A stretch of 64,000 bases of DNA. It comes from Candidatus Sulfomarinibacteraceae bacterium. Lineage in GTDB: Bacteria; Acidobacteriota; Thermoanaerobaculia; Thermoanaerobaculales; Sulfomarinibacteraceae. The number at the start of each line of letters is the position of its first letter. Positions within the stretch are counted from its first letter, which is position 1. The position numbers were made by a program, and so were the translations under genes. Below, piece after piece: positions 4,205 to 59,735 of the stretch. The notes under the pieces are model-generated. The model made no database searches, had not been told where the DNA came from, and was given only the letters and a program-made list of their open reading frames with translations. The stretch is from NCBI GenBank assembly GCA_963796455.1, contig CAWCLO010000003.1, forward strand, positions 32,001-96,000. Reading direction: 5' to 3'.

Positions 4205-4506
4205 GCCAAAGGCGACTATTCCTGTCCCTCCCCCGTCAATCTGGGGGGTGGGGGGCGGATCCAGTATCGAGTATCACTGCTGTCCAAAACAGATCGTCAC
4301 CTGAAGTTACCCACCTGACAACACGTGGTTTACGGGTTGGTTTTTGGCATATCCGGTTCGCGGTTGGCACGTACCCGTTCCCGATCCCGAATTGCAGCGG
4401 CAGCGACAGTGTCCAGCGTCAGCGACAGGCAACAGCGAACAGGGACAGCGGTCAGTGTTCAGCGACGGAGAGCAGCGGCAGCGGTCAGGAGTACAGGCGA
4501 CGAAGT

Positions 4507-4642
4507 GGCCACCACCGGGTCGTTCAACAGAAGAGGTAGCCGGTGGGCGGCCGATGTCAAGGACAGGCAGGGTGCAGGGCATCCTTGACATCGGCCACCA
4601 CACCGGCTTGTGGGTATGGGCATGAACGACCCGGAGGTGACC
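4507..4642 (+). promoter_or_regulatory. Nested long hairpin in the leader of the four-helix-bundle gene, occluding the RBS
   Basis: 4507-4526 pairs with 4623-4642 (18/20, includes GGAGG); 4538-4545 with 4601-4608; 4549-4563 with 4582-4596 (15/15). Confidence 0.75.
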
Positions 4643-4997
4643 ATGTCCTCAGCCGCCACGAACACCAAACTCGTTGCCCACTCGAAAGCACTCGAAGCCG
4701 CAGGAATCGCGATCAAGCTCGTGATGAGGGTTCCAGCTCCTCTGAAGTCGATAGCCGATCAGGTGATCCGGTCGGCAAGTTCGCTCCCTGCGAATCTGGC
4801 AGAAGGGCACGGCCGGTTCGGTAGAGACCGGTCGAACCACTGGAGGATCGCCTACGCCTCGGCCAAAGAGGTCGACAGCCACTTGCAGCTTCTCGCTCAC
4901 GCCGGGGCGATCAGCCCGACATGGAGCCAGTAGAGCGATGAACGCCTTTGATCAGGTGCGTGCAATGACTTGGAGATTGCTCAACCCGAAGTCTTGA
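4643..4997 (+). CDS. Four helix bundle protein (23S rRNA IVS protein / Avd-like family), one extra base near 4916
   Basis: DQVIRSASSLPANLAEGHGR...WRIAYASAKEVDSHL signature; removing one C in agcccga gives 117 aa colinear with the intact paralog at 59121-59474. Confidence 0.85.
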
Positions 4998-5173
4998 TTT
5001 CAGGGCCCCATGCCAGTCAAACGTGACGCTGACTTCTGTTCGCTGACGCTGAACACTGATTGCTGTTCCCTGTCCCTGACGCTGATCGCTGTCGCCGTCC
5101 CTGAACGCCAGCCGAGACTCTGTCTTGGACAAGAGTGATCTAGTATCCAGGATCCAGCATCCGGAACCAGAAG

Positions 5174-6346
5174 CTATTTCTGCTTGTGCTTCCGCGTGCC
5201 TTCGTACATCTCGAACTTGAGCAAGCGGCACTCGATGGGGCCGTTCCACAACGGGATGCGGCGGGCCGGTTTGAGACCGATGCTCTTGGCCAGACGCGGT
5301 TCGCCGGCGAGGATCCAGGCGGTGGCTCCGGTCGCCTGGTTTTTGAGGCTGTCACCAAAACGGCGGTACAGCCCAAAAAGCTTTTCCACCTCGCTGATCC
5401 GTTTCCCGTAGGGGGGATTGGCGACGATCACGCCACCCGAGCCCCAGGGCAGCTGCAGATCCAACGCGTCGCGTTGCTCCAACTCCACCGCCCGTTCCAT
5501 CCAGGCCGCCTTGAGGTTTCGTTCGGTGGCGCGAAGCGAACGGGCGGCACGGTCGCGAGCCAGAATGGGTTGCGGCGCTTCGCGGTGGCCGTGACTCGCC
5601 TCTCGCGTCACCTCCTCGAAATTCAACAACTCGTGGACCTGCCAGCGTTCGAAGGCAAAGGCCCGATGCAGACCGGGAGGGGTCTTGGTTGCGATCAAGG
5701 CGCCTTCGACGGCAAAGGTCCCGGTGCCGCACATGGGATCGAGCAGCGGCTCGGAGCCATCGTAGCCCGCCATCAGGAGGATCCCGGCGGCCAGGGTCTC
5801 GGCCAGCGGGGCCGGGCCGCCGCGCGGGCGATATCCACGATGGGACAGGGGCTCACCCGAAGAATCCAGGCTCAGGGTGACCGGCCCACGCTCGGCGAGC
5901 CGAAGATGGATCCTGATATCCGGATCATCGCGATCCACATCCGGACGCCGACCCCCGTGTTTTGATCGCAGCCGGTCCACAACCGCATCCTTGACCACTT
6001 GACCTGCAAAGGTCGTGTTCCGGAACTCGCAGTGTTTTCCCACCACCTCGACGGCCAGGGTCTGGCCTTTTTTGAACACCTCTTCCCAGGCAACCGACGC
6101 CGCGAGATCGTAGAGGTCTTTTCTGGAGCCCACCGCCCCTTTGACGAGCGGTACCAGAATCCGCATGGCCGTACGAATTCGGAGATTGACCTGATAGACG
6201 GTTCGGAGATCACCCGCAAAACCGACCGAGCCCCGGTCGGGCGCCACCGCCGACACACCGAGGTCCCGCAACTCGTCCGCCAATACGCCTTCGAGGCCAC
6301 GTGCGCAAGTCGCCACGAGAGCCTGTTCGATACCGATCTTAATCAT
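5174..6346 (-). CDS. THUMP-domain class I SAM-dependent RNA methyltransferase (RlmL/YpsC-like)
   Basis: GLEGVLADEL, LSHRGYR, APLAETLAAG, DPMCGTGT, NPPYG motifs. Confidence 0.9.
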   Translation of the reverse strand: MIKIGIEQALVATCARGLEGVLADELRDLGVSAVAPDRGSVGFAGDLRTVYQVNLRIRTAMRILVPLVKGAVGSRKDLYDLAASVAWEEVFKKGQTLAVEVVGKHCEFRNTTFAGQVVKDAVVDRLRSKHGGRRPDVDRDDPDIRIHLRLAERGPVTLSLDSSGEPLSHRGYRPRGGPAPLAETLAAGILLMAGYDGSEPLLDPMCGTGTFAVEGALIATKTPPGLHRAFAFERWQVHELLNFEEVTREASHGHREAPQPILARDRAARSLRATERNLKAAWMERAVELEQRDALDLQLPWGSGGVIVANPPYGKRISEVEKLFGLYRRFGDSLKNQATGATAWILAGEPRLAKSIGLKPARRIPLWNGPIECRLLKFEMYEGTRKHKQK

Positions 6347-7385
6347 GGGCAATCCACTCCTCCGGCATCCCGGGAGCCTGTTGAACCAGAAACTCCGCAA
6401 GGAGACGACATCCGGTTTCGGTCAGATGGAGGCCGTCCATATAGGTCTGTTGTTCGGTCATTCGCAGATTGAGCAAATTCGTCCTGAAGTCGAAATACTC
6501 GACTCCCGCCTCGGCTATAATCGCCTCCCACACCTGTGTCAACTCGGGGTCATGGTACATCTCGAACGCGTGGGGGACGACGACGGTGGAAAATCTGGCG
6601 CCGCGGCTCTCCACCAGCGATTCCATCCGTTCGAGCAGACGGACGGCAACAAGCCTGGATTCCTCTTCCGCGATGCACCGGTCGCCGATCCAATTCGGCA
6701 GCCACTCGCTCCCCTGCGGACCCATGTGAAAGACATTCCAGGCCCAGGACCCGAGCGGGCTCGAATCGAGGTGGTTGCGAGCATCATTGGCCCTGATGGG
6801 AACCCCGGTGAGGGCAATCCCATCGCCGTCCGGCACGAAGAGCGGTTTACGTTTCCCCTCGCCGCGATTGCAGTTGATATTCCACAGATCATTGTCGGAA
6901 CAGACCACGAGAATGACCCACCTCAACTCAGGCAACAGATCCAAGCTCTGCTGCAAACGAATGTAGCTCTGGTCGGTGCCGTAGCCCGGCGCAGCGAGAT
7001 TCTGAACCTGGATTCCGCGCGGTTTGACCATTGTTTCCATCCAACCGGACGGGGTATCGCCGTTGCTGTGACCGAGCCCGAACGCCACCGAGTCGCCGAG
7101 CAGCGCGATGGTCGGAACGCCCGCCATCACCTCGGAGGATCGAAACCCCGACGAGTTGATTCGAACCTCTCCGTGACCGTGGGTGAAGTGGCCGGCGATG
7201 GGCGCCCACCCAAGCACGGGGTCAAAGCGAATTGCCGCGCCGTCGAGGATGCCCCCGTTTCGAATCCGAAACCAATGCACGCCCTCGATGACCGCGATGA
7301 CGAACACGAAAGAGAACACCGCAACCAGAAGAGAAAAGAGGAGCTTGAAGAGCTTCGACGAGAAGATACGCCGTGCAGTCACCAC
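6339..7385 (-). CDS. Membrane-anchored SGNH/GDSL hydrolase-like protein
   Basis: N-terminal TM helix; LLGDSVAFG, NLAAPGYGTDQ, DGLH motifs. Confidence 0.75.
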   Translation of the reverse strand: MVTARRIFSSKLFKLLFSLLVAVFSFVFVIAVIEGVHWFRIRNGGILDGAAIRFDPVLGWAPIAGHFTHGHGEVRINSSGFRSSEVMAGVPTIALLGDSVAFGLGHSNGDTPSGWMETMVKPRGIQVQNLAAPGYGTDQSYIRLQQSLDLLPELRWVILVVCSDNDLWNINCNRGEGKRKPLFVPDGDGIALTGVPIRANDARNHLDSSPLGSWAWNVFHMGPQGSEWLPNWIGDRCIAEEESRLVAVRLLERMESLVESRGARFSTVVVPHAFEMYHDPELTQVWEAIIAEAGVEYFDFRTNLLNLRMTEQQTYMDGLHLTETGCRLLAEFLVQQAPGMPEEWIAHD

Positions 7386-7766
7386 TCACCTTTCGATGAA
7401 CTCGATGGCGTAGCCATCCGGGTCCTTGACGAAGGCGATGACGGTGGTTCCGTGTTTCATCGGTCCCGGTTCGCGAGTCACCTCACCACCATACTCCCGT
7501 ACCCGGCCACAGGCGCCGACGATATCCTTGGCACCGATCGCAATGTGGCCGAAACCGGATCCGAGCTCGTAGCTCGAAGTCTCCCAGTTATGAGTCAACT
7601 CGATGACCGCGTTTGATTCTTCATCGCCGTATCCGACGAAGGCAAGGGTAAATTTGCCCTCGGGGTAGTCGTGTTTGCGCAACAGTTTCATCCCGAGCGC
7701 CTCGGTGTAGAAGGCGATCGATTTCTCCAAATCGCCGACTCGAATCATGGTGTGCAACAGCCTCAT
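7386..7766 (-). CDS. gloA: Lactoylglutathione lyase (glyoxalase I)
   Basis: [44 protein letters not shown]. Confidence 0.96.
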
Positions 7767-7840
7767 CGCATCCTCCTCAACCCAGATTTGAGATTCGCGT
7801 TGTGCTCCGGCCCACCGACCAGAGGGGCACGCACGGATTG

Positions 7841-7876
7841 AAACTCAAAACCCATAACTCATAACTCAAAACTCAA
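7841..7876. repeat. Heptamer array (AACTCAA/AACTCAT)
   Basis: aaactcaaaacccataactcataactcaaaactcaa at the pfk stop. Confidence 0.75.
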
Positions 7877-9078
7877 TAGTCGCTCGTCATGATAAACACC
7901 GGCGCACCCTCGAAGCGGGTGTATTTCGGACGCAGACGATCGGTGTTGTAAAACTTGCCGACATCCAGCACCTTTTTCCGACTCGTCACGACCTCGATCG
8001 GAACGTTGTCGTAGCGACCGTTGCGGATGTTGATCAACCGCCCGGCCTTTCCTTCGAGGATCAGATCCATCGCCAGGTTGCCAAAGGCCATCGGAACCAC
8101 CGAGTCGAGGGCATCCGGATCACCCGATCGCACCAGATAACCGAGGCGCTGGTTGATCACGTTGACCCGATGTCCGTTGTTGTACTTCGGAGAGATCTCC
8201 TTGAGCACCCGCGCCACCCGATCACCGATACCGCCGAGCTTTTTGTGGCCGAACATGTCTTTCTCGTGGTCCTCGAAGACCATGTCTCCCTGGCCCGTGA
8301 AGGTCGCGCCCTCAGAGACCAGCACGACGCTGTAGTTGGAGGAGTTCTTGTCACGGTCGTAGGACAGCATTTCGCAAAGGTGGTCGATGTCGAAAGTGTG
8401 CTCAGGAATCACGCAGCGGTTTCCGGCACCCGCCATGGTGGGCAGCAGCGCGGTGAAACCCGCGTAACGTCCAAAGACCTCGATCACGAGGAAGCGTTCG
8501 TGGCTGCCGGCCGAGGTCCGGAGCGCGTGTGTCATGGCGATCGTTCGAGTGACGCAGGTGGAAAAACCGATGCAGTAGTCGGTGCCCGGAACATCATTGT
8601 CCATGGTTTTCGGGATGGCGATGACCGGCACCCCTTTTTCATGCAAATGAACCCCATAGGACAGGGTGTCATCGCCACCGATCGGAATCAGGGTATCGAT
8701 CCCGAGGTGTTCGATATTGGCGAGCACTTCAGCTGTGAGATCGTTGGTTTCGCCCGTGAAACTGTCGCGGAGGTGATCTGGAACCGCCGTCTGCGGGACA
8801 TGTGAGGGCCGCGTCCGCGAGCTGTGGAGAAAGGTCCCGCCGGTGCGTCCGACCCGGTTGACGACCTCCTCGGTCAGATTCATGACAAAATCGGATCCAT
8901 TCTTCCGATCGCGGTCCATTTCGATCAATCCCGCCCAACCGCGGCGGATCCCGAGAACCCGGTAGCCCTCGCGGAGCGCACGAACGGTGACCGCACGGAT
9001 GGCAGGATTCAAACCGGGCACGTCGCCGCCACCGGTGAGGATGCCGATCGTTCCCTTGATTTTGTTGATGTTCGCCAT
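7873..9078 (-). CDS. pfkA: 6-phosphofructokinase family, likely pyrophosphate-dependent
   Basis: LTGGGDVPGLN, GGTFLHSSR, GGDDT, PKTMDND, EVFGR. Confidence 0.9.
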   Translation of the reverse strand: MANINKIKGTIGILTGGGDVPGLNPAIRAVTVRALREGYRVLGIRRGWAGLIEMDRDRKNGSDFVMNLTEEVVNRVGRTGGTFLHSSRTRPSHVPQTAVPDHLRDSFTGETNDLTAEVLANIEHLGIDTLIPIGGDDTLSYGVHLHEKGVPVIAIPKTMDNDVPGTDYCIGFSTCVTRTIAMTHALRTSAGSHERFLVIEVFGRYAGFTALLPTMAGAGNRCVIPEHTFDIDHLCEMLSYDRDKNSSNYSVVLVSEGATFTGQGDMVFEDHEKDMFGHKKLGGIGDRVARVLKEISPKYNNGHRVNVINQRLGYLVRSGDPDALDSVVPMAFGNLAMDLILEGKAGRLINIRNGRYDNVPIEVVTSRKKVLDVGKFYNTDRLRPKYTRFEGAPVFIMTSDY

Positions 9079-9158
9079 AGATGAAGCTCTCCTTGATTGT
9101 GTTCACTGACTGAGAATCGCACTCGTTGGGTGCAGATCCCCGTAGGTTTCGAGAAATG

Positions 9159-10190
9159 TTAAACGACGACCCTCCAACGGACCATCTCGCCGGCGCGAAG
9201 CGGCACCAGGTCATCCTCACCGAAAGCATAAGCCTCCGGGACCAACCAATCCACTTTTTCGAGGGTGAGGTGGCCGTTGTTGCGCGGCAGGCCATAGAAG
9301 TCGGGCCCGAAATGAGAGGCAAAATCCTCGAGCCGATCGAGCGCCCCGGCCTCATCGAAGACCTCGGCGTAGAGCTCGATCGCCGCGTGTGCGGAGAAGA
9401 TGCCGGCGCACCCGTGGGCTGCCTCCTTGGCGACCCGAGGGTGGGGTGCGCTGTCGGTGCCGAGAAAAAAGCGCGGGCTGCCGCTCGTGGCCGCCCACAA
9501 CAGGGCCTCGCGGTGGCGGCCGCGTTTGAGCACCGGGAGACAGTAGTGGTGAGGAGAAAGGCCGCCCTGAAATATCGCGTTGCGATCATAAAGAAGATGG
9601 TGCGGCGTAATCGTCGCCGCCACCGAACTCGGGCCATGTAGTACCCATTCCACCGCATCACGGGTGGTGATGTGTTCGAAAACGATCTTCAAGCCGGGAA
9701 GCCGAGCAACCAATTTCTCGAGCGTTCGATCGATAAATACCTTCTCACGATCAAAGACATCGATCCCGGGATCAGTGGATTCGCCATGAACAAGCAAAGG
9801 AAGCCCGTGTTCAGCCATTGCCTCGAGCGCCGGCATGACGCGATCGATTTCGGTGACCCCGGAATCGGAATTCGTGGTGGCGCCAGCGGGGTAGAGCTTG
9901 ACTGCAACCACCACATCGCCTGCGGCCGCCTGATCGATTTCATCACGTGACGTCAGATCGGTGAGATACAGGGTCATCAGGGGACAAAAATCCGACCCCT
10001 CCGGCAGAAGGTCCAGAATTCGCCGCCGATACGCATCCGCGTCGGCGGTCGTTGTGATCGGCGGCACCAGGTTCGGCATGACCACGGCGCGGGCAAAGGA
10101 ACGGGCCGAGTGCGCGACGATATCTTTGGTTCCCACGCCGTCGCGCAGGTGCAGGTGCCAATCGTCCGGACGCCTGATTGTCAGTTTCAT
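9159..10190 (-). CDS. pyrC: Dihydroorotase, homodimeric E. coli type
   Basis: [42 protein letters not shown]. Confidence 0.96.
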
Positions 10191-10294
10191 CACAATCCCT
10201 CTCCGCATGATCGCATATTCCCCGATTCACATTCTGTGTCTGAAACCGAGCGAAATCGGATAGAATGCTGCGGCGACTAAATTTTGGTGAGGGC

Positions 10295-11125: not shown

Positions 11126-11129
11126 ATCC

Positions 11130-11420: not shown

Positions 11421-11755
11421 ATCACTCTTGTCCAAGACAGAATCTCAGACAGCGATCGGGGACAGCGTCAGTGACAGGAGTCGGCGGCAGCGACAGCGGA
11501 CAGGGTCACAGCGAACAGCACTCACTTCTTCGGGGCTCCGGCCTTTGTGGTGCGGCCGTCTCGGCCGCACGGTGTGCAGGCGAGACGCCTACACCACCAC
11601 GGCTCTTCCTTCTGTTGAACGATCCGGAGGTGGCCACGCCGTCACTGCACCTGATCGCTGACCCTGAACACTGATTGCTGCCCCCTGTCCCTGTTCGCTG
11701 TTGCCTGTCGCTGACGCTGGACACTGTCGCTGCCGCTGCAATTAGGGATCGGGAA
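11421..11755 (-). mobile_element. Four-helix-bundle element family, copy B (no gene, REP doublet in the centre)
   Basis: atcactcttgtccaagacaga at 11421; 11685-11743 is a 59/59 reverse-complement match to 4390-4448; keeps the anti-RBS arm and the ORF end (ccg aag aag tga gtgctgttcgctg). Confidence 0.75.
11547..11600. repeat. Inverted REP doublet (REPIN-like), GTGG plus palindrome
   Basis: GTGG-tgcggcc-gtctc-ggccgca and, on the opposite strand, GTGG-tgtaggc-gtctc-gcctgca; same 50 bp at 25271-25320. Confidence 0.7.
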
Positions 11756-11806: not shown

Positions 11807-11839
11807 CCGTACCGGAATTCCCGTTCGTGATAAGGAGCG

Positions 11840-11916
11840 CCGAACTCCGAACTCCGAACTCCGAACTCCGAACTCCGAACTCCGAACTCCGAACTCCGAA
11901 CTCCGAACTCCGAACT
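11840..11916. repeat. Perfect heptamer array (CCGAACT)11
   Basis: 11 exact units. Confidence 0.98.
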
Positions 11917-11929
11917 CCATCGAGTGCGA

Positions 11930-15984: not shown

Positions 15985-16070
15985 CCGAATTCGGAGTTCG
16001 GAATTCGGAATTCGGAGTTTTTGCGCACCTCACGGAGCGACAGGTGGCCGATTCAGAATTCCGAACTCTG
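15985..16070. repeat. Heptamer array (TTCGGAA/TTCGGAG) with an inverted partner
   Basis: ttcggagttcggaattcggaattcggagtt ... attcagaattccgaactc. Confidence 0.8.
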
Positions 16071-22535: not shown

Positions 22536-22536
22536 A

Positions 22537-22649
22537 ATTTTGGATTTGCGGATTTGGGATTTGGGATTTGAACACGGGTTTCCTTCGCCAGAATTCCTAC
22601 AGCCGGCCGGGCCGAAATTTCGAAATCCAAAATCCGAAATCCGAAATCT
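22537..22649. repeat. Inverted pair of heptamer arrays (TTGGGAT)n ... (AAATCCG)n
   Basis: ttttggatttgcggatttgggatttgggattt ... aaatttcgaaatccaaaatccgaaatccgaaatc. Confidence 0.85.
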
Positions 22650-22669: not shown

Positions 22670-23968
22670 ATGCAGGACGAGACGGTCACCCTCCCGCGCG
22701 TTTTTCGCTTCTGGCTGCCGCTGGCGGCCACGTGGCTGATGATGGCGGTCGAGGGGCCGTTCCTGGCCGCGATCATCGCCCGTCTGGCTGAACCGACCTA
22801 TAACCTTGCCGCCTATGGGGTGGCCTACTCGCTGGCGCTGGTGATCGAAGCGCCGGTGATCATGTTCATGAGCGCCTCCACCGCCCTCGCCCGCAACCGC
22901 CTGTCCTATTTGCGGCTGCGCAACTTCACCCATGCCATCAACATCGGTGTCACCGTGGCGATGGCGCTGGTGCTGGTACCGCCGGTTTTTCGCTGGTTTG
23001 CAGGGGACGTGATCGGTCTCCCGCCCGATGTCGCTTCGAGAACCCACATTGCCCTGCTCATCCTCCTACCGTGGCCTGCGACCATCGGTTTTCGACGTTT
23101 CTACCAGGGCGTTTTGATCCGCCACGATCTGACGCGCTGGGTGGCCTACGGCACCATCGTTCGGCTGGTGGCCATGTTCGGCACAGCCATCGCGCTCGCC
23201 CTCGACGGGCGGCTTGAAGGCGCCTATGTCGGGGCAGCTGCTCTGACCGCCGGCGTTTCAGCAGAGGCCGTCACCGCAGCGATCATGGCCAGGGGCCCTG
23301 TCAGCAGCCTGCTCCGCGATGTCTCAGAACCCACCGGCGCCGCCACAAGCTACTCGGGCCTGGCAAAGTTCTACTATCCTTTGGCGCTGACCACCATGCT
23401 CAGTCTCGGCATCCACCCGGTGGTCACCTTCTTTGTCGGCAACAGCCGGGCCCCCCTCGAGTCCCTGGCGGTTCTGCCGGTGGTGGGCTCGCTTGTTTTT
23501 GTTTTTCGAAGCCTCGGGCTCGCCTATCAGGAGGTGGTGATCGCCCTCATCGGCGACAACCACCAGAATTACCGTTGTCTCCGTCGATTCGGTATGGCCC
23601 TCGGGCTGGCGGTCGTCGGGGGTCTCGCGCTGATCGCCTGGACCCCCCTTGCAGGCGTCTGGTTTCGCACTCTCTCCGGGCTCTCACCGGAGCTCGCTGA
23701 ATTCGCCCTCGCTCCAACCCGGATTCTGACGATCATCCCGGGGCTGTCCGCATTGTTGTCATTTCAACGGGCGATCGCCGTCGTCCGGCAGACCACCGAT
23801 TCGATCACCTGGGCCACTCTCATCGAGGTCGTTGTCGTTGTGGCGGTCCTGTGGCTCGCGATCACCCGACTCGATGCCGTCGGTGCGGTGGCTGCGGCAA
23901 CAGCGCTGGTGATCGGGCGGCTCGGGGCCAATGCGTGGTTGGTGCCGACGCTCAAAGAGAAGGCTTGA
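22670..23968 (+). CDS. MATE/MOP-superfamily (ANKH-like) membrane transporter
   Basis: About 12 TM segments, internal two-fold repeat (FWLPLAAT / FYYPLALT), RRFYQGVLIR. Confidence 0.75.
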   Translation: MQDETVTLPRVFRFWLPLAATWLMMAVEGPFLAAIIARLAEPTYNLAAYGVAYSLALVIEAPVIMFMSASTALARNRLSYLRLRNFTHAINIGVTVAMALVLVPPVFRWFAGDVIGLPPDVASRTHIALLILLPWPATIGFRRFYQGVLIRHDLTRWVAYGTIVRLVAMFGTAIALALDGRLEGAYVGAAALTAGVSAEAVTAAIMARGPVSSLLRDVSEPTGAATSYSGLAKFYYPLALTTMLSLGIHPVVTFFVGNSRAPLESLAVLPVVGSLVFVFRSLGLAYQEVVIALIGDNHQNYRCLRRFGMALGLAVVGGLALIAWTPLAGVWFRTLSGLSPELAEFALAPTRILTIIPGLSALLSFQRAIAVVRQTTDSITWATLIEVVVVVAVLWLAITRLDAVGAVAAATALVIGRLGANAWLVPTLKEKA

Positions 23969-24062
23969 GACCTGAGGCCTGAGGCTTGGGGCCTGGGGCC
24001 TGGGGCTTGGGGCTTGGCCTGATACCGGACGATCAGCAATTCCTCAAGCCCCGACCCCAAGC
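23962..24062. repeat. Heptamer array (GGCCTGA/GGCCTGG/GGCTTGG) with a short inverted partner
   Basis: Starts at the stop codon; inverted caagccccgaccccaagc at about 24045-24062. Confidence 0.85.
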
Positions 24063-25140: not shown

Positions 25141-25443
25141 CACTCTTGGCCAAGGCAAAGTCTCGGATACCCTCCAGGGACAGCGTCAGCAAACAGGAAT
25201 CAGGGGCAGCAATCAGGTGCAGTGACGGCGTGGTCACCTCCGGGTCGTTCAACAGAAGGAACAGCCGCTGTGGTGTAGGCGTCTCGCCTGCACACCGTGC
25301 GGCCGAGACGGCCGCACCACCAAGCCCGGATCCCCGAAGAAATGAGCGCTGTTCACTGTCCCGGCCGCTGACCGCTGACGCTGATGACTGAACACTGCCG
25401 CTGTCCCTGATCGCTGTCCGAAACTCTGTCTTGGACAAGAGTG
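25141..25443 (+). mobile_element. Four-helix-bundle element family, copy C (303 bp, both terminal repeats, REP doublet centre; MITE-like)
   Basis: Left cactcttggccaaggcaaagtctcgga...cagggacagcg versus right cgctgtccctga...tccgaaactctgtcttggacaagagtg; central 50 bp identical to copy B. Confidence 0.78.
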
Positions 25444-25571: not shown

Positions 25572-25727
25572 GATGTCATCCTGAGCGAAGTGCCTTTGGC
25601 GCGAAGTCGAAGGACCCGTTCGACTCGCGTTGCTCGCTCAGGGCAGGTTCTGCGGCTTGAGATGGTTGCGGTCCGTCTCATAGATCCTTCGACTACGCCC
25701 CTGTGGGGCTCCGCTCAGGATGACATC
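25572..25727. repeat. Palindromic REP-like element, TGTCATCCTGAGCG...CGCTCAGGATGACA, copy 1
   Basis: Terminal inverted repeat gatgtcatcctgagcg / cgctcaggatgacatc; close copy at 32687-32838. Confidence 0.85.
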
Positions 25728-25769
25728 GGGGGGCGACATTCCCATGCGCGAGAAACCGGTGCCGAACGG

Positions 25770-25900
25770 TTCTCCCTTTCTCCCTTGCCCCCTTTCTCCC
25801 TTTCTCCCTTTCCCCCTTTCTCTCCCTTTCTCCCTTGCTCCCTTTCTCCCTTTCCCCCCTGCCCCTCTGCCCCTCTGCTCCTCTGCCCCTCTGCCCCTCT
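25770..25900. repeat. Pyrimidine-rich octamer arrays (TTTCTCCC)n then (CCCCTCTG)n
   Basis: Directly visible, about 16 degenerate 8-nt units. Confidence 0.9.
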
Positions 25901-27008: not shown

Positions 27009-28547
27009 GTGCCCGAAAACCTGGCCCTCGCCAACCCACTGACCGTGCTCCTGGACAAGAACAGAACCGATTTCACCCGCGCCGACATGTTGCGTGTCAT
27101 CAAAGAGCGCGGTATCGAACGATTGACCTTCCACTACACGAGCCTGGATGGAAAGTTTCGCGAACTGAAACTCCCGGTCAGCGATTTTGACCAGGCCGAG
27201 AGAGTTCTGGCATCGGGCGAACGGGTTGACGGATCGTCCCTCTTTCCGGGTCTTGTCGACACCGCCTCGTCAGATCTTTATGTCGTGCCCAGCTACAGCA
27301 GCGCGTTTTTCAGCCCCTTCGACAACTGCAGCCTCAACTTCATCTGTCGCTTTCTCGACCGGGACGGCGAGCTCGCGCCCTTCACTCCGGACAATATTCT
27401 GACCCTCGCCCACCGGAGATTCCAGGAACGCACCGGGCTCGAGTTGCACGCTCTCGGTGAGCTCGAGTTCTTCCTGGTTCGGGAAGGTGGCCCCGAGAAT
27501 TTCGCAGCCAATCGCCAGACCGGCTATCACGCGTCTTCTCCTTTCTTCAAGGGCGGCGACATCGTCAATGAAATGGTTCGGTGCCTCACCCAGATCACCG
27601 GCGCGGTCAAATACGCTCACGCCGAGGTCGGATATATCGATTCGGTGCGTTCGAACCTTCCTTTGTTGAAAGGAAGACGGGCCGAACAGCACGAGATCGA
27701 GTTGCTGACGCGCCCGATCGAGGAGATGGGTGACTATATCGGCCTGTCGCGCTGGATCATCCGCAACGTCGCCCACCGCAACGGCATGCTGGCCACCTTT
27801 GCACCAAAGATCGAGGAAGGGGTGGCCGGCAACGGCCTCCATTTCCATCTCGAGCTGGTCAAGGACGGTCAGAACATCATGTCCGCCAAGGACGGTGGTC
27901 TGACGGAAGAAGCCCGAAAGCTGATCGCGGGTCTGGTGCACTACGCTTCCACCCTCTCGGCTTTCGGCAACACAGTCGCCTCGTCGTTTCTCCGGCTGGT
28001 CCCCAACCAGGAGGCACCGACCCGTATCTGTTGGAGCAACAACAACCGCTCCGCCCTGATCCGGGTGCCCCTCGGCTGGTCGCAAAAAAGCCACCTCGCG
28101 AGAGTGGTCAACCCTGTTGACGCCGACGAATATGTGGATTCGCGCGGCCGGCAGACCGTCGAGATCCGCTCACCGGACGGTTCAGCGTCCTTTCACCTGC
28201 TCCTGGCCGGTCTCGCCACCGCCGCAGAGTACGGTCTGACCCACGAGGCGATGCTCGATCTGGCAAAGAAGACATACGTCGACGGCAACGTCTTTTCTGA
28301 TGAGAAAAAGATGAAACACCTCGAGGCACTACCGGCCAGCTGTGTTCGGTGCGCGGGCCTGCTGGAAGAGCGCCGTGGGATGTACGAGGACTTCGGAGTC
28401 TTTCCGGCAGCGGTCATCGATCACCAGATCCGGCTGCTTCGCAAAGAAAACGACGAGCACCTCAACTCAGATTTTTCCAAGCTCCCCGCCGAAGAACGAC
28501 TCACGGCCACCCGGGAACTGATGCACAAGGATATTCACCGGCACTAA
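27009..28547 (+). CDS. Glutamine synthetase family protein
   Basis: DGSSL, ELEFF, HAEVG, EQHEIE, GNGLHFH, RLVPNQEAP, NRSALIRVP, EIRSPD; GTG after ggaggt. Confidence 0.88.
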   Translation: MPENLALANPLTVLLDKNRTDFTRADMLRVIKERGIERLTFHYTSLDGKFRELKLPVSDFDQAERVLASGERVDGSSLFPGLVDTASSDLYVVPSYSSAFFSPFDNCSLNFICRFLDRDGELAPFTPDNILTLAHRRFQERTGLELHALGELEFFLVREGGPENFAANRQTGYHASSPFFKGGDIVNEMVRCLTQITGAVKYAHAEVGYIDSVRSNLPLLKGRRAEQHEIELLTRPIEEMGDYIGLSRWIIRNVAHRNGMLATFAPKIEEGVAGNGLHFHLELVKDGQNIMSAKDGGLTEEARKLIAGLVHYASTLSAFGNTVASSFLRLVPNQEAPTRICWSNNNRSALIRVPLGWSQKSHLARVVNPVDADEYVDSRGRQTVEIRSPDGSASFHLLLAGLATAAEYGLTHEAMLDLAKKTYVDGNVFSDEKKMKHLEALPASCVRCAGLLEERRGMYEDFGVFPAAVIDHQIRLLRKENDEHLNSDFSKLPAEERLTATRELMHKDIHRH

Positions 28548-28594
28548 GGCTTGGGGCTTGGGGCTTGGGTCTCAGGGCGTGAGGCTTGTGGCTC
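28546..28594. repeat. Heptamer array (GGCTTGG)n
   Basis: aaggcttggggcttggggcttgggtctcagggcgtgaggcttg at the stop codon. Confidence 0.8.
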
Positions 28595-28632
28595 CGAGCC
28601 AGTGGCTTGAGACTGAGTTTAAAGAAACGGGA

Positions 28633-32533: not shown

Positions 32534-32945
32534 GGGAAAGGGAGAAAGGGGGCATGGGAGAAAGGGAGATCGGCCGGACGGTGGATGCTGGATTCCCAAA
32601 CCCCATGGCAGAGGGGCAGAGGTGCAAGGGGGCAAGGGAGAACCGTTCGGCACCGGTTTCGCACGTATGCGAGTGTCGCCCCCCGAATGTCATCCTGAGC
32701 GGAGCGCCTTCGGCGCGTAGTCGAGACCGTTCGACTCGCGTTGCTCGCTCAGGCAGGATCTGCGGAACCGAAAGTTGTTCCGTTCATCTCATAGATCCTT
32801 CGACTGCGCCCCTGTGGGGGCTCCGCTCAGGATGACATCGGGAAGCGACGTTCCCATTCAGGAGAGATCGATGCCGAGAGATTCTCCCTTTCTCCCTTTC
32901 CCCCTTTCTCCCTTTCGGGAGCGGGTGCGGGTGCGGGTGCGGATA
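32534..32945. repeat. REP-like palindrome copy 2 (32687-32838) inside extended inverted arms with octamer tails
   Basis: atgtcatcctgagcggag...ctccgctcaggatgacat; flanks gggagaaccgttcggcaccggtttc...gtcgcccccc and cgggaagcgac...ttctccctttctccc resemble the 25728-25800 flank. Confidence 0.8.
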
Positions 32946-43210: not shown

Positions 43211-43656
43211 TGTCGGATATGCGTGAGCTCTATCAAGAGGTCATCCTCGATCACAACAAAAAACCGCGGAACTGTTATGCGATGGATTGCGCAAATCGTT
43301 CGGCCGACGGCCACAACCCCCTGTGCGGAGACACGGTCAAGGTCTATCTCCGGATCGAAGCCGGGGTCATCGAGGAGATCAGCTTCGAGGGTGAAGGCTG
43401 CGCCATCTGCACGGCCTCCACTTCGTTGATGACCGAATCGGTCAAGGGCAAGTCGGTCGCTGAGGTCAAAGAGATCTTTGACGGTTTTCACGATATGTTG
43501 ACGGGTGTCGCGGCCGAACAGGGCGTCGAACTCGGCAAGCTCAAGATCTTCGAAGGCGTTCGTGAGTACCCCGTTCGCGTCAAGTGCGCCACCCTGGCGT
43601 GGCATACGCTCAATGCAGCGATGGATGGGGACGACGATTCGGTAACAACGGAATGA
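43210..43656 (+). CDS. sufU: SUF system NifU-family protein SufU
   Basis: LYQEVILDH, NPLCGD, GCAIC, RVKCATL. Confidence 0.95.
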   Translation: MSDMRELYQEVILDHNKKPRNCYAMDCANRSADGHNPLCGDTVKVYLRIEAGVIEEISFEGEGCAICTASTSLMTESVKGKSVAEVKEIFDGFHDMLTGVAAEQGVELGKLKIFEGVREYPVRVKCATLAWHTLNAAMDGDDDSVTTE

Positions 43657-43760
43657 GTTCTGAGTTCGGAGTTCTGAGTTCGGAGTTTTGGACTGGGGTG
43701 CCGGCCACAGGGTCTTGGTGGACGGGCATTCCGAATTCCGAATTCCGAATTCCGAACTCA
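43655..43760. repeat. Inverted heptamer arrays (GAGTTCT/GAGTTCG)n ... (ATTCCGA)n inside the suf operon
   Basis: Directly visible between sufU and sufT; a further (GATTTCG)n array at 44082-44116. Confidence 0.88.
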
Positions 43761-49240: not shown

Positions 49241-49476
49241 CACTCTTGTCCAAGACAGAGCCTCGGATAGCGTTCAGGGACAGCGGCGGGGAACCGCGGC
49301 CGACCACCGGCTACCCCTTCTGTTGAACGGCCCGAAGTTGCCCCTTCACCGCCTGGACTCCTGACCGCTGCCGCCGAACACTGATCGCCGCTCCCTGTCG
49401 CTGACGCGGGACACTGTCGCTGCCGCTGCAATACGGGTACGGACGCGGGCAACCTCGAACCCGGATATGCCAAAAA
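49241..49476 (-). mobile_element. Four-helix-bundle element family, copy D (internally deleted, empty)
   Basis: Reverse complement aligns to 4341-4553 (tttttggcatatccgg...ggtagccggtgg) joined directly to the 5092-5137 right end (gtccctgaacgc...ctctgtcttggacaagagtg). Confidence 0.78.
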
Positions 49477-54262: not shown

Positions 54263-54275
54263 GGCCCGCCACGAG

Positions 54276-54317
54276 TTGACCGAAGTCAAGGCAAGACACC
54301 GTCCAACCTGCAAGAAT
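54276..54317 (+). promoter_or_regulatory. FNR/Crp-family box with class II promoter geometry
   Basis: TTGAC-cgaa-GTCAA (54276-54289) and -10-like AAGAAT (54312-54317). Confidence 0.68.
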
Positions 54318-54340
54318 CGGTCAAAAGCGAGGCATGAAAA

Positions 54341-54895
54341 ATGGATCCGATCGAAGCGCTCAGAAACGAGCACGTGTTGATCCGGCAATTCGTCGACCTC
54401 CTGTCGGTGGCGGTCGAGCGCCTCGAGATCGAAGAACCTCCACCCCGAGCCTTCTTCGACAACGGCATCGATTTTGTCCGCGGCTTTTCCGACGGTTTCC
54501 ACCACAAAAAGGAAGAGCTGGTGATGTTCCGGCAGTTGGCACAAAAAAAGAACGGCGCCATCGACGGTCAGATCGAGGCCCTCCGGTATCAGCACGATCA
54601 AGGCCGGAGCTTCATTCAGGCCATCGCCGGCGCCCTCGACGGTTATGCCGCTGGTGACCCGGGCGATGGGTCGATCGTGCGGGAGAACGCCGCCGCCTTC
54701 GCATCACTGCTGAAACACCACATCCACATCGAGGACCACATCTTCTTTCCCATGTCACAGGAGGAGATGAGCCCCCAAGAGCTCGAGGAGCTGGGTCTCA
54801 AGTTTGAAAAGGTGCAGAAAAAGCACGGATCGGACACCTTCGAGCGTTATCGCAAGCTTGTCAACGATCTCGACGAGATGCTCGGTGAACGATGA
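54341..54895 (+). CDS. Hemerythrin-domain protein
   Basis: NEH, FHHKKEE, QH, HIHIEDHIFFP. Confidence 0.9.
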   Translation: MDPIEALRNEHVLIRQFVDLLSVAVERLEIEEPPPRAFFDNGIDFVRGFSDGFHHKKEELVMFRQLAQKKNGAIDGQIEALRYQHDQGRSFIQAIAGALDGYAAGDPGDGSIVRENAAAFASLLKHHIHIEDHIFFPMSQEEMSPQELEELGLKFEKVQKKHGSDTFERYRKLVNDLDEMLGER

Positions 54896-55515
54896 ATCGC
54901 TCGGCCGACGAACTCGCCGAACAGGCCGGAGATTGGGCCCTGATGCGATTGTTACTGGCTCGACCCAATGAAGACTGGAAACGGGATCTGCTCCACTTTT
55001 CCACCGACACGGTCGACCCGGAGCTCACCAGTGCTGTCCAGATGGCCCAGGCCGAGGGCAACGACTACTTCCACCAGGCTCTTTTCGGAGTCGAGGGCCT
55101 CCTGACCTCGAGGGAATCGGAGTATCGTTTCGAGCGTGATCGAGGCGCGGTCCTGGCAGATCTCGAAGGGATGAGAGAGCGTTTTTCATTTTCCTGGGGC
55201 GGCGCCGAACCGGCCGACCACATTCTGGCCATGGTCGGATTGATGGCGCACATCCTCGACCTTCAGGCACGGGCTCTTCGTGACGATCAGATCGGCGAGG
55301 CCCTCTACCTCGAAGGCATCGCCGAATGGCTCAGGAGAGGCCATCTCGCGTGGTTTGCCGAGCAGATCGCCTCCGCCTTGAACTCGACTCAAGTCTGCTA
55401 TTTATCGCACGTGGCGCACGCACTCGAACAACGCGTCCTACCCGCCGGCGAGCGTGGGAAACCGGCACGCCGCCCGTCGGAATCGATCCGAGACCACGAA
55501 CCGACAAAAACCTGA
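54892..55515 (+). CDS. TorD/DmsD-like redox-enzyme maturation chaperone
   Basis: RESEY, LADLEG, EPADHI and HLAWF motifs; helical, about 200 aa. Confidence 0.65.
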   Translation: MNRSADELAEQAGDWALMRLLLARPNEDWKRDLLHFSTDTVDPELTSAVQMAQAEGNDYFHQALFGVEGLLTSRESEYRFERDRGAVLADLEGMRERFSFSWGGAEPADHILAMVGLMAHILDLQARALRDDQIGEALYLEGIAEWLRRGHLAWFAEQIASALNSTQVCYLSHVAHALEQRVLPAGERGKPARRPSESIRDHEPTKT

Positions 55516-55524
55516 GGAGGCATC

Positions 55525-56082
55525 ATGGACCCGATCGAGACCCTGACCAACGAGCACGGATTGATCCGACAATTTCTCGATACCCTGGCCCTGGCGGCGG
55601 AAAAAATCGAAAACGGGTCCCGCCCATCGTCGGCGTTCTTTGAAAAGGGGGTGGATTTTGCCCGGACGTTCGCCGACAAGTACCACCATTTCAAAGAGGA
55701 GCACGTCCTTTTTCTCCAACTCGCGCAGAAAAAGCAGGGTGAGGTGGATGCCCAACTCGAGGCCCTCCGATATGAGCATGAGCGCGGTCGTTCATTGGTC
55801 ACCGGAATCGAAAGTGCGCTCGAAGGATACGAAAAAAACGACCCGATCAAAACCGGTGAACTGCTCGAGAACGTGGCCGCGTATGTCTCGCTACTGCGCC
55901 ACCACATCCACGTCGAAGACCATGTGTTCTACCCGATGGCGCGAAAGACCCTGACCGCGGATGAGTTCGAGGCGCTGACCCCGGAATTCAAGAAGGCCCA
56001 CGACCGATACGGCTCCGACACCTTCGAACGCTGCCACAAAACCGTGGTGGATATGGGTTCGATCGTGACGCATATGCGGTGA
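55525..56082 (+). CDS. Hemerythrin-domain protein (paralog of 54341-54895)
   Basis: NEH, HHFKEE, EHERGR, HIHVEDHVFYP. Confidence 0.9.
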   Translation: MDPIETLTNEHGLIRQFLDTLALAAEKIENGSRPSSAFFEKGVDFARTFADKYHHFKEEHVLFLQLAQKKQGEVDAQLEALRYEHERGRSLVTGIESALEGYEKNDPIKTGELLENVAAYVSLLRHHIHVEDHVFYPMARKTLTADEFEALTPEFKKAHDRYGSDTFERCHKTVVDMGSIVTHMR

Positions 56083-56116
56083 ACGACCGCAGAACGAAGA
56101 GCGTCTCAAGAGCTGG

Positions 56117-56213
56117 GATGCGAATCGCAATCGCTATCGGGATCGCTATCGCTACGATCTGGCTTGATGGCCTACGGTCGTCGATAGCGATTCCGATAGC
56201 GATGGCGATAGCG
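56117..56213. repeat. Inverted hexamer arrays (ATCGCT)n ... (AGCGAT)n between convergent genes
   Basis: cgaatcgcaatcgctatcgggatcgctatcgctacgat ... tcgatagcgattccgatagcgatggcgatagcga. Confidence 0.85.
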
Positions 56214-56249
56214 ACCGGCCCGAAAGTCAGCGCGCTTGCGTCCGCCCAC

Positions 56250-57275
56250 TCAACTCCAAAAACCCACTCCAACCTTTGCGGGAGCCCCAGGCACCTCTCG
56301 CACGAGACGCGGGACCAGATAGCCCGGCAGTCGCGCGCACAGGTTCTCGAAGATGCTTTTTGCCTCAGCTTCAGGGACATCGAAGTGGGCCGCTCCAGCT
56401 ACAGGGTCGAGCATGTGGAGGTAGTAGGGCAGCACCCCGGCGGCAAAAAGCTCCTCGCTGAGTTCTGCGAGAACGTCAACCGAGTCGTTGACCCCACGCA
56501 AAAGCACCGATTGGTTGAGGAGGGTGATCTCGGTCGCACCCAGGGCGGCCAGGGCGCGGCGAACATCAGCATCGATTTCGTTGCGGTGATTGACGTGCAG
56601 CACCATCACCGTGGGCAACCCGAGCCCGCCGATCCACGAGGTCAATGCTCCGTCGACCCGCTGCGGTAGGACGATCGGCAGACGGGTGTGAATCCGTAAC
56701 CTTTTCAACTGCGGCAGCGCCGCCAACTTGCGAGCCAGCACTTCCAGCCGGGAGTCCGGCACCGACAACGGATCGCCGCCCGAGAGGATGACTTCGACGA
56801 TGGCGGGATCCGAGCCTATTCGATCGACGACGTCGTCCCACCCTGGTGGTACGGGTCCCTGGTCGGAGTACGGAAAATGACGCCGAAAACAATATCGGCA
56901 ATGAACGGCACAGGCGCCGGTCACCATCACCAGCGCCCGCCCGTGGTACTTGTGAAGCAAACCACCGGTGGGTGGATCCTGGAGCTCAGCGACCGGGTCA
57001 TTTCCAAAGCCCGGAACCGGCTTCGTCTCGAGGCCGATCGGCAATATCTGTCGGAGCAGGGGATCATCCGGATCACCACGATGTATGCGACTCACAAAGC
57101 CCCGTGGTACCCTGAGCCCGAAGCTGTCAGCGGCCTGAATCGCCTCGGCCCGAACGCCGAGGGACGAAGCGTTCAAGCCGAGCAACCCGAGCAACTCGTC
57201 GAGATCGGTGACCGCGTCGGCGAGGTGTTTCTTCCAGGCTCCAATCGGCCAAGGGGCATTTGATATCGTGCTCAT
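56250..57275 (-). CDS. epmB: EF-P beta-lysylation protein EpmB (KamA family)
   Basis: [48 protein letters not shown]; divergent from efp. Confidence 0.93.
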
Positions 57276-57328
57276 CCGGCGCAGTCTCGCAGTTTCGGTA
57301 TGATCGATGCAAGCAAGGAGATCGTAAA

Positions 57329-57892
57329 ATGGCTACCTACAACCTGAATCAGGTCAAAGTCGGGCTCAAAATCATGGTCGACGGCGACCCCTGTGTCATC
57401 GTCGGGGCGGAGTTCGTCAAACCCGGCAAGGGGCAGGCTTTCACCAAAGTCAAATACAAGAACTACAAGACTGAACGGGTCAATGAAAAGACCCTCAAGG
57501 CCTCGGATACTTTCGAAGGGGCCGATGTCGTCGACAAAGAAATGCAGTATCTCTACACCGACGGCCGAACCTTCACCTTCATGGATCAGAACACCTATGA
57601 GCAGGTCGAGGCCAATGTCGAGGCGCTCGGCAACTCGCAACAGTTCCTGAAGGAAGAAGACCTGTGCATCGTCACCCTGCTCGAGGGCAATCCGATTGTG
57701 GTCACGCCGCCGAATTTCGTCGTCCTCGAGGTCACCGAAACCGACCCGGGGGTCAAGGGTGACACCTCGGGCGGCGGCAACAAGCCGGCGACCTGCGAAA
57801 CCGGCGCCGTGATCCGGGTGCCCCTCTTTGTCCAGCAGGGCGAAAAGGTCAAGGTGGACACTCGCACGGGAGAATATGTCTCGAGGGCTTGA
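57329..57892 (+). CDS. efp: Elongation factor P
   Basis: [37 protein letters not shown]. Confidence 0.98.
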
Positions 57893-58034
57893 CCCCGCGT
57901 CCGAGTCCGCGTCCGCGTCCGTGACCGACTCGTATTCAGAGTTCGGAGTTCGGATTTCGGAGTTGCCACCAGCCAACCCCCCGAAACGGGACCGCGGGCG
58001 GAAACTCAAAACTCAAAACTCAAAACTCAAAACT
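57893..58034. repeat. Composite array: (GCGTCC)n hexamers, (GAGTTCG)n and (AAACTCA)4-5 heptamers
   Basis: Directly visible between efp and epmA. Confidence 0.88.
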
Positions 58035-58051
58035 GATCCCCGGTCTACGTT

Positions 58052-59027
58052 ATGACTTCGGCCCGAGACGATTGGCGCCCCACAGCATCCATCGAAATGC
58101 TTCGCCTCCGCGCCGAGGTGCTCTCCGTGATCCGCACGTTTTTTGCCGAACGTGGGGTGCTCGAGGTGGAGACTCCCCTGCTTGCTGCCGCGCCGGTCAC
58201 CGATGTCCACCTCAGCGCGCTGCGGAGCCGCTACCGGGGGCCGGGAGCCGACGACGGTCGCGAGCTCTTTCTTCAGACATCCCCCGAATTTGCCATGAAG
58301 AGGCTTCTGGCGGCCGGCTCCGGGCCCATCTACCAACTCTGTAAGGCCTTTCGCAACGGTGAGGCGGGCGGCATGCACAATCCGGAGTTCACGATGCTCG
58401 AGTGGTACCGCCCGGGTTGGGACCACCACAAACTGATGACCGAGATCGACCAACTCCTCTATGCGATTCTCGGTGTCCCCGAGGCCGAACGTCTGACCTA
58501 TGGCGAGGCCTTCCAAAGCCGTATCGATTTCGACCCCCACTCCATCTCGATTGAGGAGTTGCGGCAGCAGGTCTCGAAACTCGGGGTCGACGACCCCGAG
58601 GGGCTCGACCGCGACGATTTGTTGGATCTCGCCCTAACCCACATCGTCATGCCCACGCTCGGCCACGATCGACCAACCGTCATCCACGACTACCCCGCCT
58701 CTCAGGCTGCCCTCGCACGAACCCGGCCCGGTCCACCGCCGGTGGCCGAGCGTTTCGAGTTTTTTGTAGAAGGCGTCGAACTCGCAAACGGCTACCACGA
58801 ACTGGTGGATCCAGCCGAACAGCGGCGGCGCTTCGAAGCGGACCTTGAGCGCACGACGCAAGGCCGGTCTGGCAGAGGTCCCGATCGACCAACGGCTCCT
58901 GGCCGCCCTTGACGATGGTCTGCCCGACTGTGCTGGCGTGGCACTCGGGGTGGATCGTTTGGTGATGCTCAAAGCGGGAGCCCGTGAGATCTCCGAGGTC
59001 ATCGCGTTCCCGATCGACAGGGCGTAG
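58052..59027 (+). CDS. epmA: EF-P lysine aminoacylase EpmA, frameshift near 58850
   Basis: [41 protein letters not shown]; motif 3 (GVALGVDRL) lies in ORF 58845-59027. Confidence 0.92.
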
Positions 59028-59029
59028 CT

Positions 59030-59735
59030 CGGGAACAACGAACAGTAAACGGCGACAGCGGACAGCGTCAGCCAACAGAGGTCAGCGGCAGCGACAGTGG
59101 TCGGCGTCAGCGAACAGCACTCACATTTTCGGGTTCAACAGCCGCCAGGTCATGGCACGGACCTGATCGAAGGCGTTCATCGCGTCGCAGGCGGCTGTCC
59201 GACTGATAGCCCCCGCGTGGGCGAGAAGCTTCAAGTGGCTGTCGACCTCTTTGGCCGAGGCGTAGGCGATTCTCCAGTGGTTCGACCGGTCTCTACCGAA
59301 TCGGCCGTGCCCTTCCGCCAGATTCGCAGGGACTGAACTCGCCGACCGGATCACCTGATCGGCTATCGACTTCAACGGAGCTGGAACCCTCATCACAAGC
59401 TTTATCGCGATTCCCGCGGCTTCGAGGGCTTTCGAGTGGGCAACGAGGTTGGTGTTCGGGACGGCGTTGGACATGGTCACCTCCGGGTCGTTCATGCCTA
59501 TACCCACAAGCCGGTGTGGCGGGCGATGTCAAGGGTGCCCTGCACCCTGCCTGCCCTTGACATCGGTCGCCCACCGGCTACGCCTTCCGTTGAACGACCC
59601 GGAGGTGGCCACTTCGCCGCCTGGATTCCTGACCGCTGCTGCCGATCGCTGAACGCTGTTTCCGGTCGCTGTTCCCTGCCGCTGACGCTGGACACTGTCG
59701 CTGCCGCTGAATTTCGGGATCGGGATCGGGATCGC
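59030..59735 (-). mobile_element. Four-helix-bundle element family, copy E (intact gene, terminal 21-bp motif not seen)
   Basis: CAGCGN arms on both sides; leader hairpin 59475-59610 homologous to 4507-4642. Confidence 0.7.
59121..59474 (-). CDS. Four helix bundle protein (23S rRNA IVS protein / Avd-like family), 117 aa
   Basis: RBS ggaggtgacc-ATG; DQVIRSASSVPANLAEGHGR...IAYASAKEVDSHL. Confidence 0.9.
   Translation of the reverse strand: MSNAVPNTNLVAHSKALEAAGIAIKLVMRVPAPLKSIADQVIRSASSVPANLAEGHGRFGRDRSNHWRIAYASAKEVDSHLKLLAHAGAISRTAACDAMNAFDQVRAMTWRLLNPKM

Follow-up and report, generated by a model that had tools for sequence, protein, structure and literature searches.

A 64,000-nucleotide stretch of a Candidatus Sulfomarinibacteraceae genome (contig CAWCLO010000003.1, positions 32,001 to 96,000; hereafter the window) contains five intergenic copies, A to E, of a cassette whose only gene encodes a four-helix-bundle protein. 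We interpret the cassette as an insertion mobilised by an IS4-type insertion sequence (IS) and carrying a selected cargo that is independent of any one IS chassis, a reading to which we give a probability of about 0.82. The five loci and their shared parts, reported in an original prediction made from the window alone, are all present; copies A and B do share exactly 59 identical bases, and the terminal motif occurs in A to D and is absent from E. Judged from sequence, these loci belong to a real family of transposase-less mobile insertion cassettes that is far larger than five.

The genome of the window (G000) is a 5.02-Mb assembly of 10 contigs, 90.5% complete; other G numbers denote comparison genomes, which are congeners except for G023 and G030 from a sister family. 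Counting as a copy each match to the cassette's core motif with a CAG arm upstream, we found 175 copies among 255 core-motif matches in G000. They comprise 58 with a full open reading frame (ORF), 5 with a frameshifted one, 29 with a partial one, 61 centred on a repetitive extragenic palindrome (REP) doublet, and 22 without an ORF; the gene is partly or wholly gone in 112. A separate protein search of G000 returned 59 full-length matches, 58 of them open. The tip pattern that marks the cassette ends had 145 matches in G000 against none for a reversed control pattern, which places the family far beyond chance. Among 18 congeners drawn, 15 contained matches to the query, from 1 to 52 each, and three contained none. 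An Rfam scan of the window gave no matches, and a literature search covering few subscription journals found no paper describing the cassette.

The two ends of the cassettes are sharp, one being CACTGCTGTCCAAAACAGA and the other TCTGTCTTGGACAAGAGTG. At no more than four mismatches G000 holds 279 tips, of which 162 pair into 81 two-ended elements. A 9-bp target-site duplication is exact in 21 of these 81, compared with a mean of 2.2 (maximum 6) when flanks were shuffled between elements, a control that does not preserve the local array type; within one mismatch the figures are 40 of 81 and 8.1 (maximum 14). Every other duplication length from 3 to 15 gave three exact matches or fewer. The targets follow a symmetric consensus, ATSCWGSAT, and lie mostly in heptamer arrays; outside such arrays 9 of 28 sites still match within one base, beyond chance. 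Conversely, a tip lies within 25 nt in 78 of 161 heptamer arrays of this type. We rejected the idea that the arrays are footprints of the duplication, as their period is 7 rather than 9. For copy A (4275-5137), where the original prediction saw no target-site duplication, ATCGAGTAT on the left (4266-4274, within a heptamer array) is repeated with one mismatch as ATCTAGTAT on the right (5138-5146).

Intact elements with the same ends exist. Twelve of 60 metagenome loci carrying the tip are two-ended elements of 1.4-1.6 kb with a long ORF, and two of these (L031 and L050) have exact 9-bp duplications and ORFs that score above cut-off as NF033592 IS4 transposases. An intact IS4 in the congener G017 has the two types of tip and a Y-R-E-K motif and is set in heptamer arrays; beyond the tip, the first 100 nt of copy A can be aligned to the right end of this element. 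Both asymmetric cassette tips thus match intact NF033592 elements, and because the ends are those of IS4-family elements, their transposase explains the 9-bp duplication. The original prediction had taken the gene-bearing copies to be autonomous and had named a match to a known IS with an explanatory transposase as evidence against its own view; that match is what we find. Its broader expectation of a mobile family with derivatives and a mover encoded elsewhere is supported.

Table 1 of De Palmenaer 2008 (PMC2266710) gives the IS4Sa subgroup CA------T ends, 8-10-bp repeats, lengths of 1150-1750 bp and a YREK motif. The cassette ends likewise begin with CA and have T at position 9, the 9-bp duplication falls within the subgroup range, and the cognate intact elements have the corresponding size, the NF033592 transposase and the Y-R-E-K motif. 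The cognate IS therefore fits IS4Sa, as judged by ends, size, duplication length and Y-R-E-K rather than by a transposase tree; the cassette differs in encoding no transposase. In other taxa, gene-less MITEs (miniature inverted-repeat transposable elements) with the same IS4 tips measure 123-409 bp overall. Those of 123-311 bp (L014, L017, L026, L028, L029, L055, L083 and L088) mostly have 9-bp duplications.

Mobile insertion cassettes are described in the relevant passages of two papers as having IS4-family ends around a passenger gene, no transposase, and a mover supplied in trans (PMC6542083; PMC2266710). With its shared ends, duplication, lack of a transposase and absence from orthologous spacers, our cassette has the sequence marks of a mobile insertion cassette or IS4-derived MITE, and its mobility mechanism is of this already known kind. 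MIC231 of Bacillus cereus also has IS4-family ends round a passenger gene and direct repeats of about one helical turn. It differs in having IS231-type ends (CAT..., 10-12 bp), whereas those here are IS4Sa-like (CA..., 9 bp). Further differences are the approximately 175 copies, the single conserved cargo of a hairpin-gated four-helix-bundle module, the occurrence of that module between ISL3 ends in congeners, the mosaicism of the copies and the existence of a REP-centred sister subfamily.

Comparison of orthologous spacers, which the original prediction proposed, supports insertion. The module and tips are absent from the pepF/rlmL spacer in all five congeners compared, from the epmA/next-gene spacer in both loci that keep the gene pair (five looked at), and from the radical SAM/amidase spacer in the one locus that keeps the pair (three looked at); the orthologous spacer of copy B gave no usable match in congeners. 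Recent copying is also visible. Copy A and its sibling at C7:250697 are 98.5% identical at unrelated sites with different duplications, and a REP-form pair is 97.9% identical, without gaps and again with different duplications. From G006, the 41 loci taken for comparison yielded 33 full-length ORFs, and 29 of these show an identity of 95% or more, mostly about 99%. One G006 subfamily (L095, L104, L109, L110, L111) has the hairpin region replaced by a shared, different insert that begins after the first bases of the core, with the ORF intact. In each of six genomes compared, the pepF/rlmL spacer (window 4139-4275 and 5138-5170; L166-L170) contains heptamer arrays that face each other, with a repeat unit that varies between genomes, and copy A sits inside one array arm.

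Between the IS ends lies the cargo module of repeat arms, hairpin and gene. The core, which had been described as a free arm, is the 5' strand of a predicted nested hairpin of about 140 nt (z -7.0); GGAGGTG, the Shine-Dalgarno sequence, and the ATG start codon lie on the 3' strand. The whole of copy A is predicted to fold arm to arm (z -7.2). In 17 non-redundant hairpins the two strands of the inner stem vary in concert around an invariant TGTCAAGG/CCTTGACA core; either selection on structure or copying from one inverted repeat to the other may explain this. TAG stands directly 5' of the inner stem in 68 of 69 hairpins, a feature that we take to resemble GTAG-type REPs. Reading 'MNDPEVT' as the protein N-terminus was rejected, as this stretch is the outer stem's 3' strand and contains the Shine-Dalgarno sequence. 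A leftward sigma-70 promoter noted by eye in the hairpin (TTGACA, 16-19 nt, TA) is not claimed, its last -10 T not being conserved. At L208 (G001:C3) a 165-nt inverted-repeat element is inserted in the loop of the module's hairpin.

The same module travels on a different chassis elsewhere in the genus. At 40 loci from nine other congeners, IS4 tips occur in none and ISL3-type ends (GGYTCATCCGGAA) occur on both sides in 22, spread over five congeners. These ISL3-ended copies lie in AACGTT heptamer arrays and have 8-bp duplications that are exact in 8 of 22 and within one mismatch in 15 of 22. An intact ISL3 with GGYTCATCCGGAA-type ends is present in G017; a candidate second composite of ISL3 and module, at G017:C613, proved to be an intact ISL3 beside a separate cassette. 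With other hexamer units, the module reaches the sister family (G023/G030). In a midpoint-rooted tree of 78 ORFs, in which 12 G000 rows were drawn at random and labelled IS4 by default and the relatives' rows were best-scoring matches, a single clade (support 100/99) joins the copies from G000 and G006, which sit among ISL3-ended and tip-less ones. Together these data indicate that the cargo module is older than its IS4 ends.

The encoded protein is best seen in copy E, whose intact 117-amino-acid ORF (59121-59474, minus strand) scores over the PF05635 and TIGR02436 cut-offs. A single-sequence structure model (pLDDT 90.8; two of five models confident) has a four-helix fold and matches XCC0516 (2GSC) and BT_0352 (2RLD) at a TM score of about 0.82, and Avd at 0.79 with 7-8% identity. 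Homology between Avd and PF05635 is stated in the relevant part of PMC10053308, and a homopentameric state for the family is taken from 2GSC as described in the corresponding part of PMC4990558. Avd of diversity-generating retroelements (DGRs; 4DWL, 8UB7) shares the fold and has an accessory, non-catalytic role on a mobile system, as proposed here for the cassette protein. Of the co-occurring genes suggested by the original prediction, genes resembling REP-associated tyrosine transposases (RAYTs) are present, while no reverse transcriptase (PF00078) was found in the 90.5%-complete G000, with template and variable repeats left unsearched; with none found, the cassette is not a DGR. G000 also has GxxExxY (TIGR04256) genes at C1:453966 and C1:748395-750487, two intact and one split.

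Substitution patterns, also proposed for study originally, show that the four-helix-bundle gene is under purifying selection, with omega near 0.15. Mean pairwise pN/pS among the 59 G000 ORFs is 0.17, and omega is 0.19 for variants common to two or three copies and 0.15 for those in at least four. Between genomes it is 0.12-0.18 in the three of ten pairs that could be anchored, the other seven having been dropped. Private variants in the G006 burst number 18 synonymous and 13 nonsynonymous (p 0.0004-0.013), and only-new alleles there are also synonymous-rich (p 0.026); 12 of the 18 synonymous variants are alleles also present in other lineages and may have been imported. Linkage among the G000 ORFs decays with distance (permutation p 0.002), r2 being 0.17 for sites within 10 bp of each other and about 0.03 for those beyond 60 bp; the copies are thus mosaics. 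What survives of the original prediction is in this respect stronger than it claimed, since by these sequence comparisons the cargo is conserved, under purifying selection and bounded by different IS ends in different lineages.

The REP-centred subfamily reached 61 copies without the gene. Its two junctions are uniform in 60 and 59 of the 61, indicating that one gene-less derivative became as numerous as the gene-bearing form and that the protein can be dispensed with in cis, so that the family, contrary to what had been proposed, is not built around it in cis. This subfamily resembles REP/RAYT systems such as REP doublets forming hairpins (REPINs) and bacterial interspersed mosaic elements (BIMEs) in that its REP doublet is of the GTAG type and is also found beside RAYT-like genes. 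The cassette REP flanks two of the six Y1-transposase loci of G000, and the one of these two tested scores just over cut-off as a RAYT. It differs in that 61 of the 76 REP doublets of G000 lie inside IS4-ended cassettes at a single fixed junction and are thus not dispersed as independent units. Most likely it was the IS4 route, rather than a RAYT, that amplified the doublets.

These data allow us to propose a mechanism. An older module of repeat arms, a hairpin hiding the ribosome-binding site, and a four-helix-bundle gene would have been enclosed by IS4 ends here and by ISL3 ends elsewhere, the IS4 ends being gained once, around the pre-existing module, in the lineage leading to G000 and G006. 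That both IS types target heptamer arrays would have favoured its capture. A cognate IS4 transposase, since lost or unassembled, would have inserted the copies in trans, and recombination between copies and between inverted arms would have produced mosaic, deleted and symmetric forms. By hiding the ribosome-binding site, the hairpin would allow little or only conditional protein from read-through transcripts. The protein, predicted to form an Avd-like pentamer, would bind nucleic acid of the module's arms or hairpin and, in trans, aid the spread or persistence of the family. This helper role is the weakest step of our analysis, falling somewhat short of an even chance.

Several observations weigh against this mechanism. 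IS tips are not recognisable in 7 of the 58 full-ORF copies in G000 or in 12 of the 66 relatives' copies in the ORF tree. Duplications differ at two or more bases in 41 of 81 elements, more than expected from 1.8 private changes per ORF, so that recombination or array slippage must be invoked. Ten of the 12 intact metagenome elements, and the G017 IS4 itself, have no duplication. No IS4 transposase was found in G000 with NF033590, NF033592 or the G017 IS4 protein, nor any in G006, the holder of the recent burst, and only 2 of 25 genus genomes (G031 being one) have one over cut-off. The absences in congeners are spacer-level, and an exact nucleotide-level empty allele was not seen because gene sequences of the congeners reach only about 70-79% identity. 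For the helper role in particular, the 61 gene-less copies show no cis requirement for the protein, and private variants in G000 have an omega of 0.71 (p 0.10 against neutrality, with which they are compatible), a value pushed upward by saturation of synonymous sites. The sole PF01609 gene of G000 was rejected as the mover, being IS5/IS1182-like, below cut-offs and associated with neither tip type, and an ISL3 transposase (PF01610) was not found in G000.

Two other accounts of the gene, both unlikely and ranked equally behind the helper role, must be weighed. The protein could be a passenger useful to the host, an RNA-binding or chaperone pentamer, with host-level selection on the pooled copies and gene conversion homogenising them; bad subunits might possibly poison the homo-oligomer and so drive selection. 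That 58 of 59 full-length copies are open, that private variants in the G006 burst are rich in synonymous changes even among new alleles, and that linkage decays within 30-60 bp all agree with this, but matches per congener range from none (3 of 18, by this query) to about 100, the ribosome-binding site is predicted to be buried, and the recurrent setting of the family is selfish elements, not fixed operons. Alternatively, the gene could be a silent hitchhiker, whose synonymous bias is inherited or imported from functional alleles elsewhere while the copies here decay neutrally. The G000 private variants do not differ from neutral, 112 of 175 copies lack part or all of the gene, two-thirds of the synonymous private variants of G006 are shared with other lineages, and the Coxiella intervening-sequence (IVS) homologue is described, in the part of PMC4990558 concerned, as probably not expressed and decaying. 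Against this, omega is low between lineage-specific bursts as well as within them, no single-copy, non-mobile 'master' gene of the subfamily was seen, and the two strands of the hairpin stem change in step from lineage to lineage.

Rather improbable is a third account, in which the inner module is itself mobile by another route, for example an HUH enzyme or RAYT reading the TAG-headed hairpin, with the IS ends secondary. In its favour, the module is found across the order, copies lacking any recognisable IS tip occur in G003, G004, G010, G013, G015, G018 and the sister family, the TAG resembles GTAG-type REPs, the RAYT-like genes of G000 are flanked by the same REP that replaced the cassette centre, and four unrelated four-helix-bundle genes of G000 each lie boxed between inverted 6-8-nt repeats with a unit of their own. 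However, the near-identical multi-copy sets examined (G006, G008, G016 and the A subfamily) are all bounded by IS tips, and the tip-less copies have ragged ends with no defined module-only junction or duplication. The four boxed genes lie at C4:1278094, C1:983149, C9:2726 and C10:733004 (L180-L183), with units of 8, 7, 7 and 6 nt respectively, and these units also form gene-less arrays across the window.

The cassettes share the protein family and fold of 23S rRNA intervening sequences encoding S23p in Coxiella and Leptospira (PF05635; 2GSC, 2RLD), together with a long stem round the ORF (predicted here), CAG-containing upstream repeats and poor access to the ribosome-binding site. They differ in lying outside rRNA genes, in being multi-copy and IS-bounded with target duplications, in having an extra nested hairpin, and in a gene under purifying selection as opposed to the reductive evolution of the IVS. 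No catalogued copy lies inside the one rRNA locus located in G000, so the cassette is not a 23S rRNA IVS. The mobility of intervening sequences, present or past, is presented in the pertinent section of PMC4990558 as an old, unproven hypothesis. Least probable of all is an RNA-level cassette that RNase III cuts from host transcripts at its long arms, as it cuts out the Coxiella IVS, whose ORF follows GACAGAT heptamers (PMC4990558). In its favour, the predicted fold of the whole of copy A pairs the two arms. Against it, the sole rRNA locus located contains none of the 175 copies (the nearest is 2.2 kb from the 16S motif), crude gene calls show no overall orientation bias to host genes (36 sense, 36 antisense) and an enrichment between convergent genes (65 of 175 versus 343 of 2072), and cleavage without ligation would split the mRNA. 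Such excision could be a side property and would leave mobility unexplained. An orientation bias of intact genes (7 sense, 17 antisense; Fisher p 0.024 versus other forms) is not claimed, as it depends on the crude gene calls and is one among several comparisons.

Within the window, copy A (plus strand) begins with an IS4-type right end (4275-4372), made up of the tip CACTGCTGTCCAAAACAGA and a subterminal stretch of about 80 nt alignable with the right end of the congener's intact IS4. A left arm of CCCGAT and then CAGCGN hexamers follows (4373-4505), then the nested hairpin (4506-4645), in whose outer stem the core (4510-4526) pairs with the GGAGGTG and ATG strand (4623-4645) and whose inner stem is formed by TGTCAAGG (4555-4562) and CCTTGACA (4583-4590). 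The gene (4643-4997), the inverted right arm (4998-5118) predicted to pair with the left one, and the IS4-type left-end tip TCTGTCTTGGACAAGAGTG (5119-5137) complete the element. The genes of A and E had been taken as two 117-codon copies about 90% identical; that of E is intact and the two agree at 310 of 354 positions (88%), but that of A is frameshifted near 4921 and stops at 4931-4933. The extra base near 4921 is missing from the sibling at C7:250697, and the frameshift may be a private mutation or an assembly error, the latter because epmA in the window (58052-59026) also appears shifted: its ORF stops at 58912 while similarity to orthologues runs to about 59026, possibly another assembly error.

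Copies B and C have the REP doublet described originally. Copy B (11423-11755, minus strand) is gene-less, with a single tip at 11423, the other end lost, and the doublet at 11550-11592; copy C (25141-25443, plus strand) has the same tip type at both ends, the doublet at 25275-25317, and flanks without a target duplication (seven of nine positions mismatched). Like copy C, the copies at C1:331407 and C10:353248 in G000 are symmetric, with one type of arm or tip repeated at both ends, which suggests copying between inverted arms. Copy D (49241-49476, minus strand), thought to be empty, is a deletion derivative with a tip at 49241 and an IS subterminal remnant at 49461-49476; the hairpin and gene are deleted, although the hairpin base persists, as does part of the IS end. 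Copy E (59030-59735, minus strand) has lost both IS tips and keeps the arms and hairpin (59472-59607).

Other repeats accompany these copies. A second, REP-like family (GGGGCTCCGCTCAGGATGAC...) followed by CCCTTTCT octamer arrays occurs at 25705-25804 and 32817-32916, and also interrupts cassettes elsewhere in G000. Intergenic heptamer or octamer tandem arrays of several unit types lie at 7840-7873, 11835-11918, 15987-16021, 22536-22649, 23958-24016, 28544-28616, 43655-43760 and 57932-58034.

The PF05635/S23p family has two solved structures and no known function, and the cassette provides a free-standing, mobile relative on which selection can be measured, in one orthologous module carried by two unrelated IS chassis within a genus. 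It is possible, though doubtful, that the module is a selfish unit in its own right, captured between unrelated IS4 and ISL3 ends aimed at the same arrays, with the Avd-like pentamer as a general trans factor. The pentamer would then bind its own arms in a mobility or RNA-protection role, each protein subfamily being matched to its repeat unit. The natural gene-less control offered by the REP subfamily, together with the intact cognate IS4 of a congener, makes the role of the protein testable. If the selfish-unit idea is correct, the S23p/IVS family would gain a function, and the relation between rRNA intervening sequences and the Avd of DGRs would be explained.

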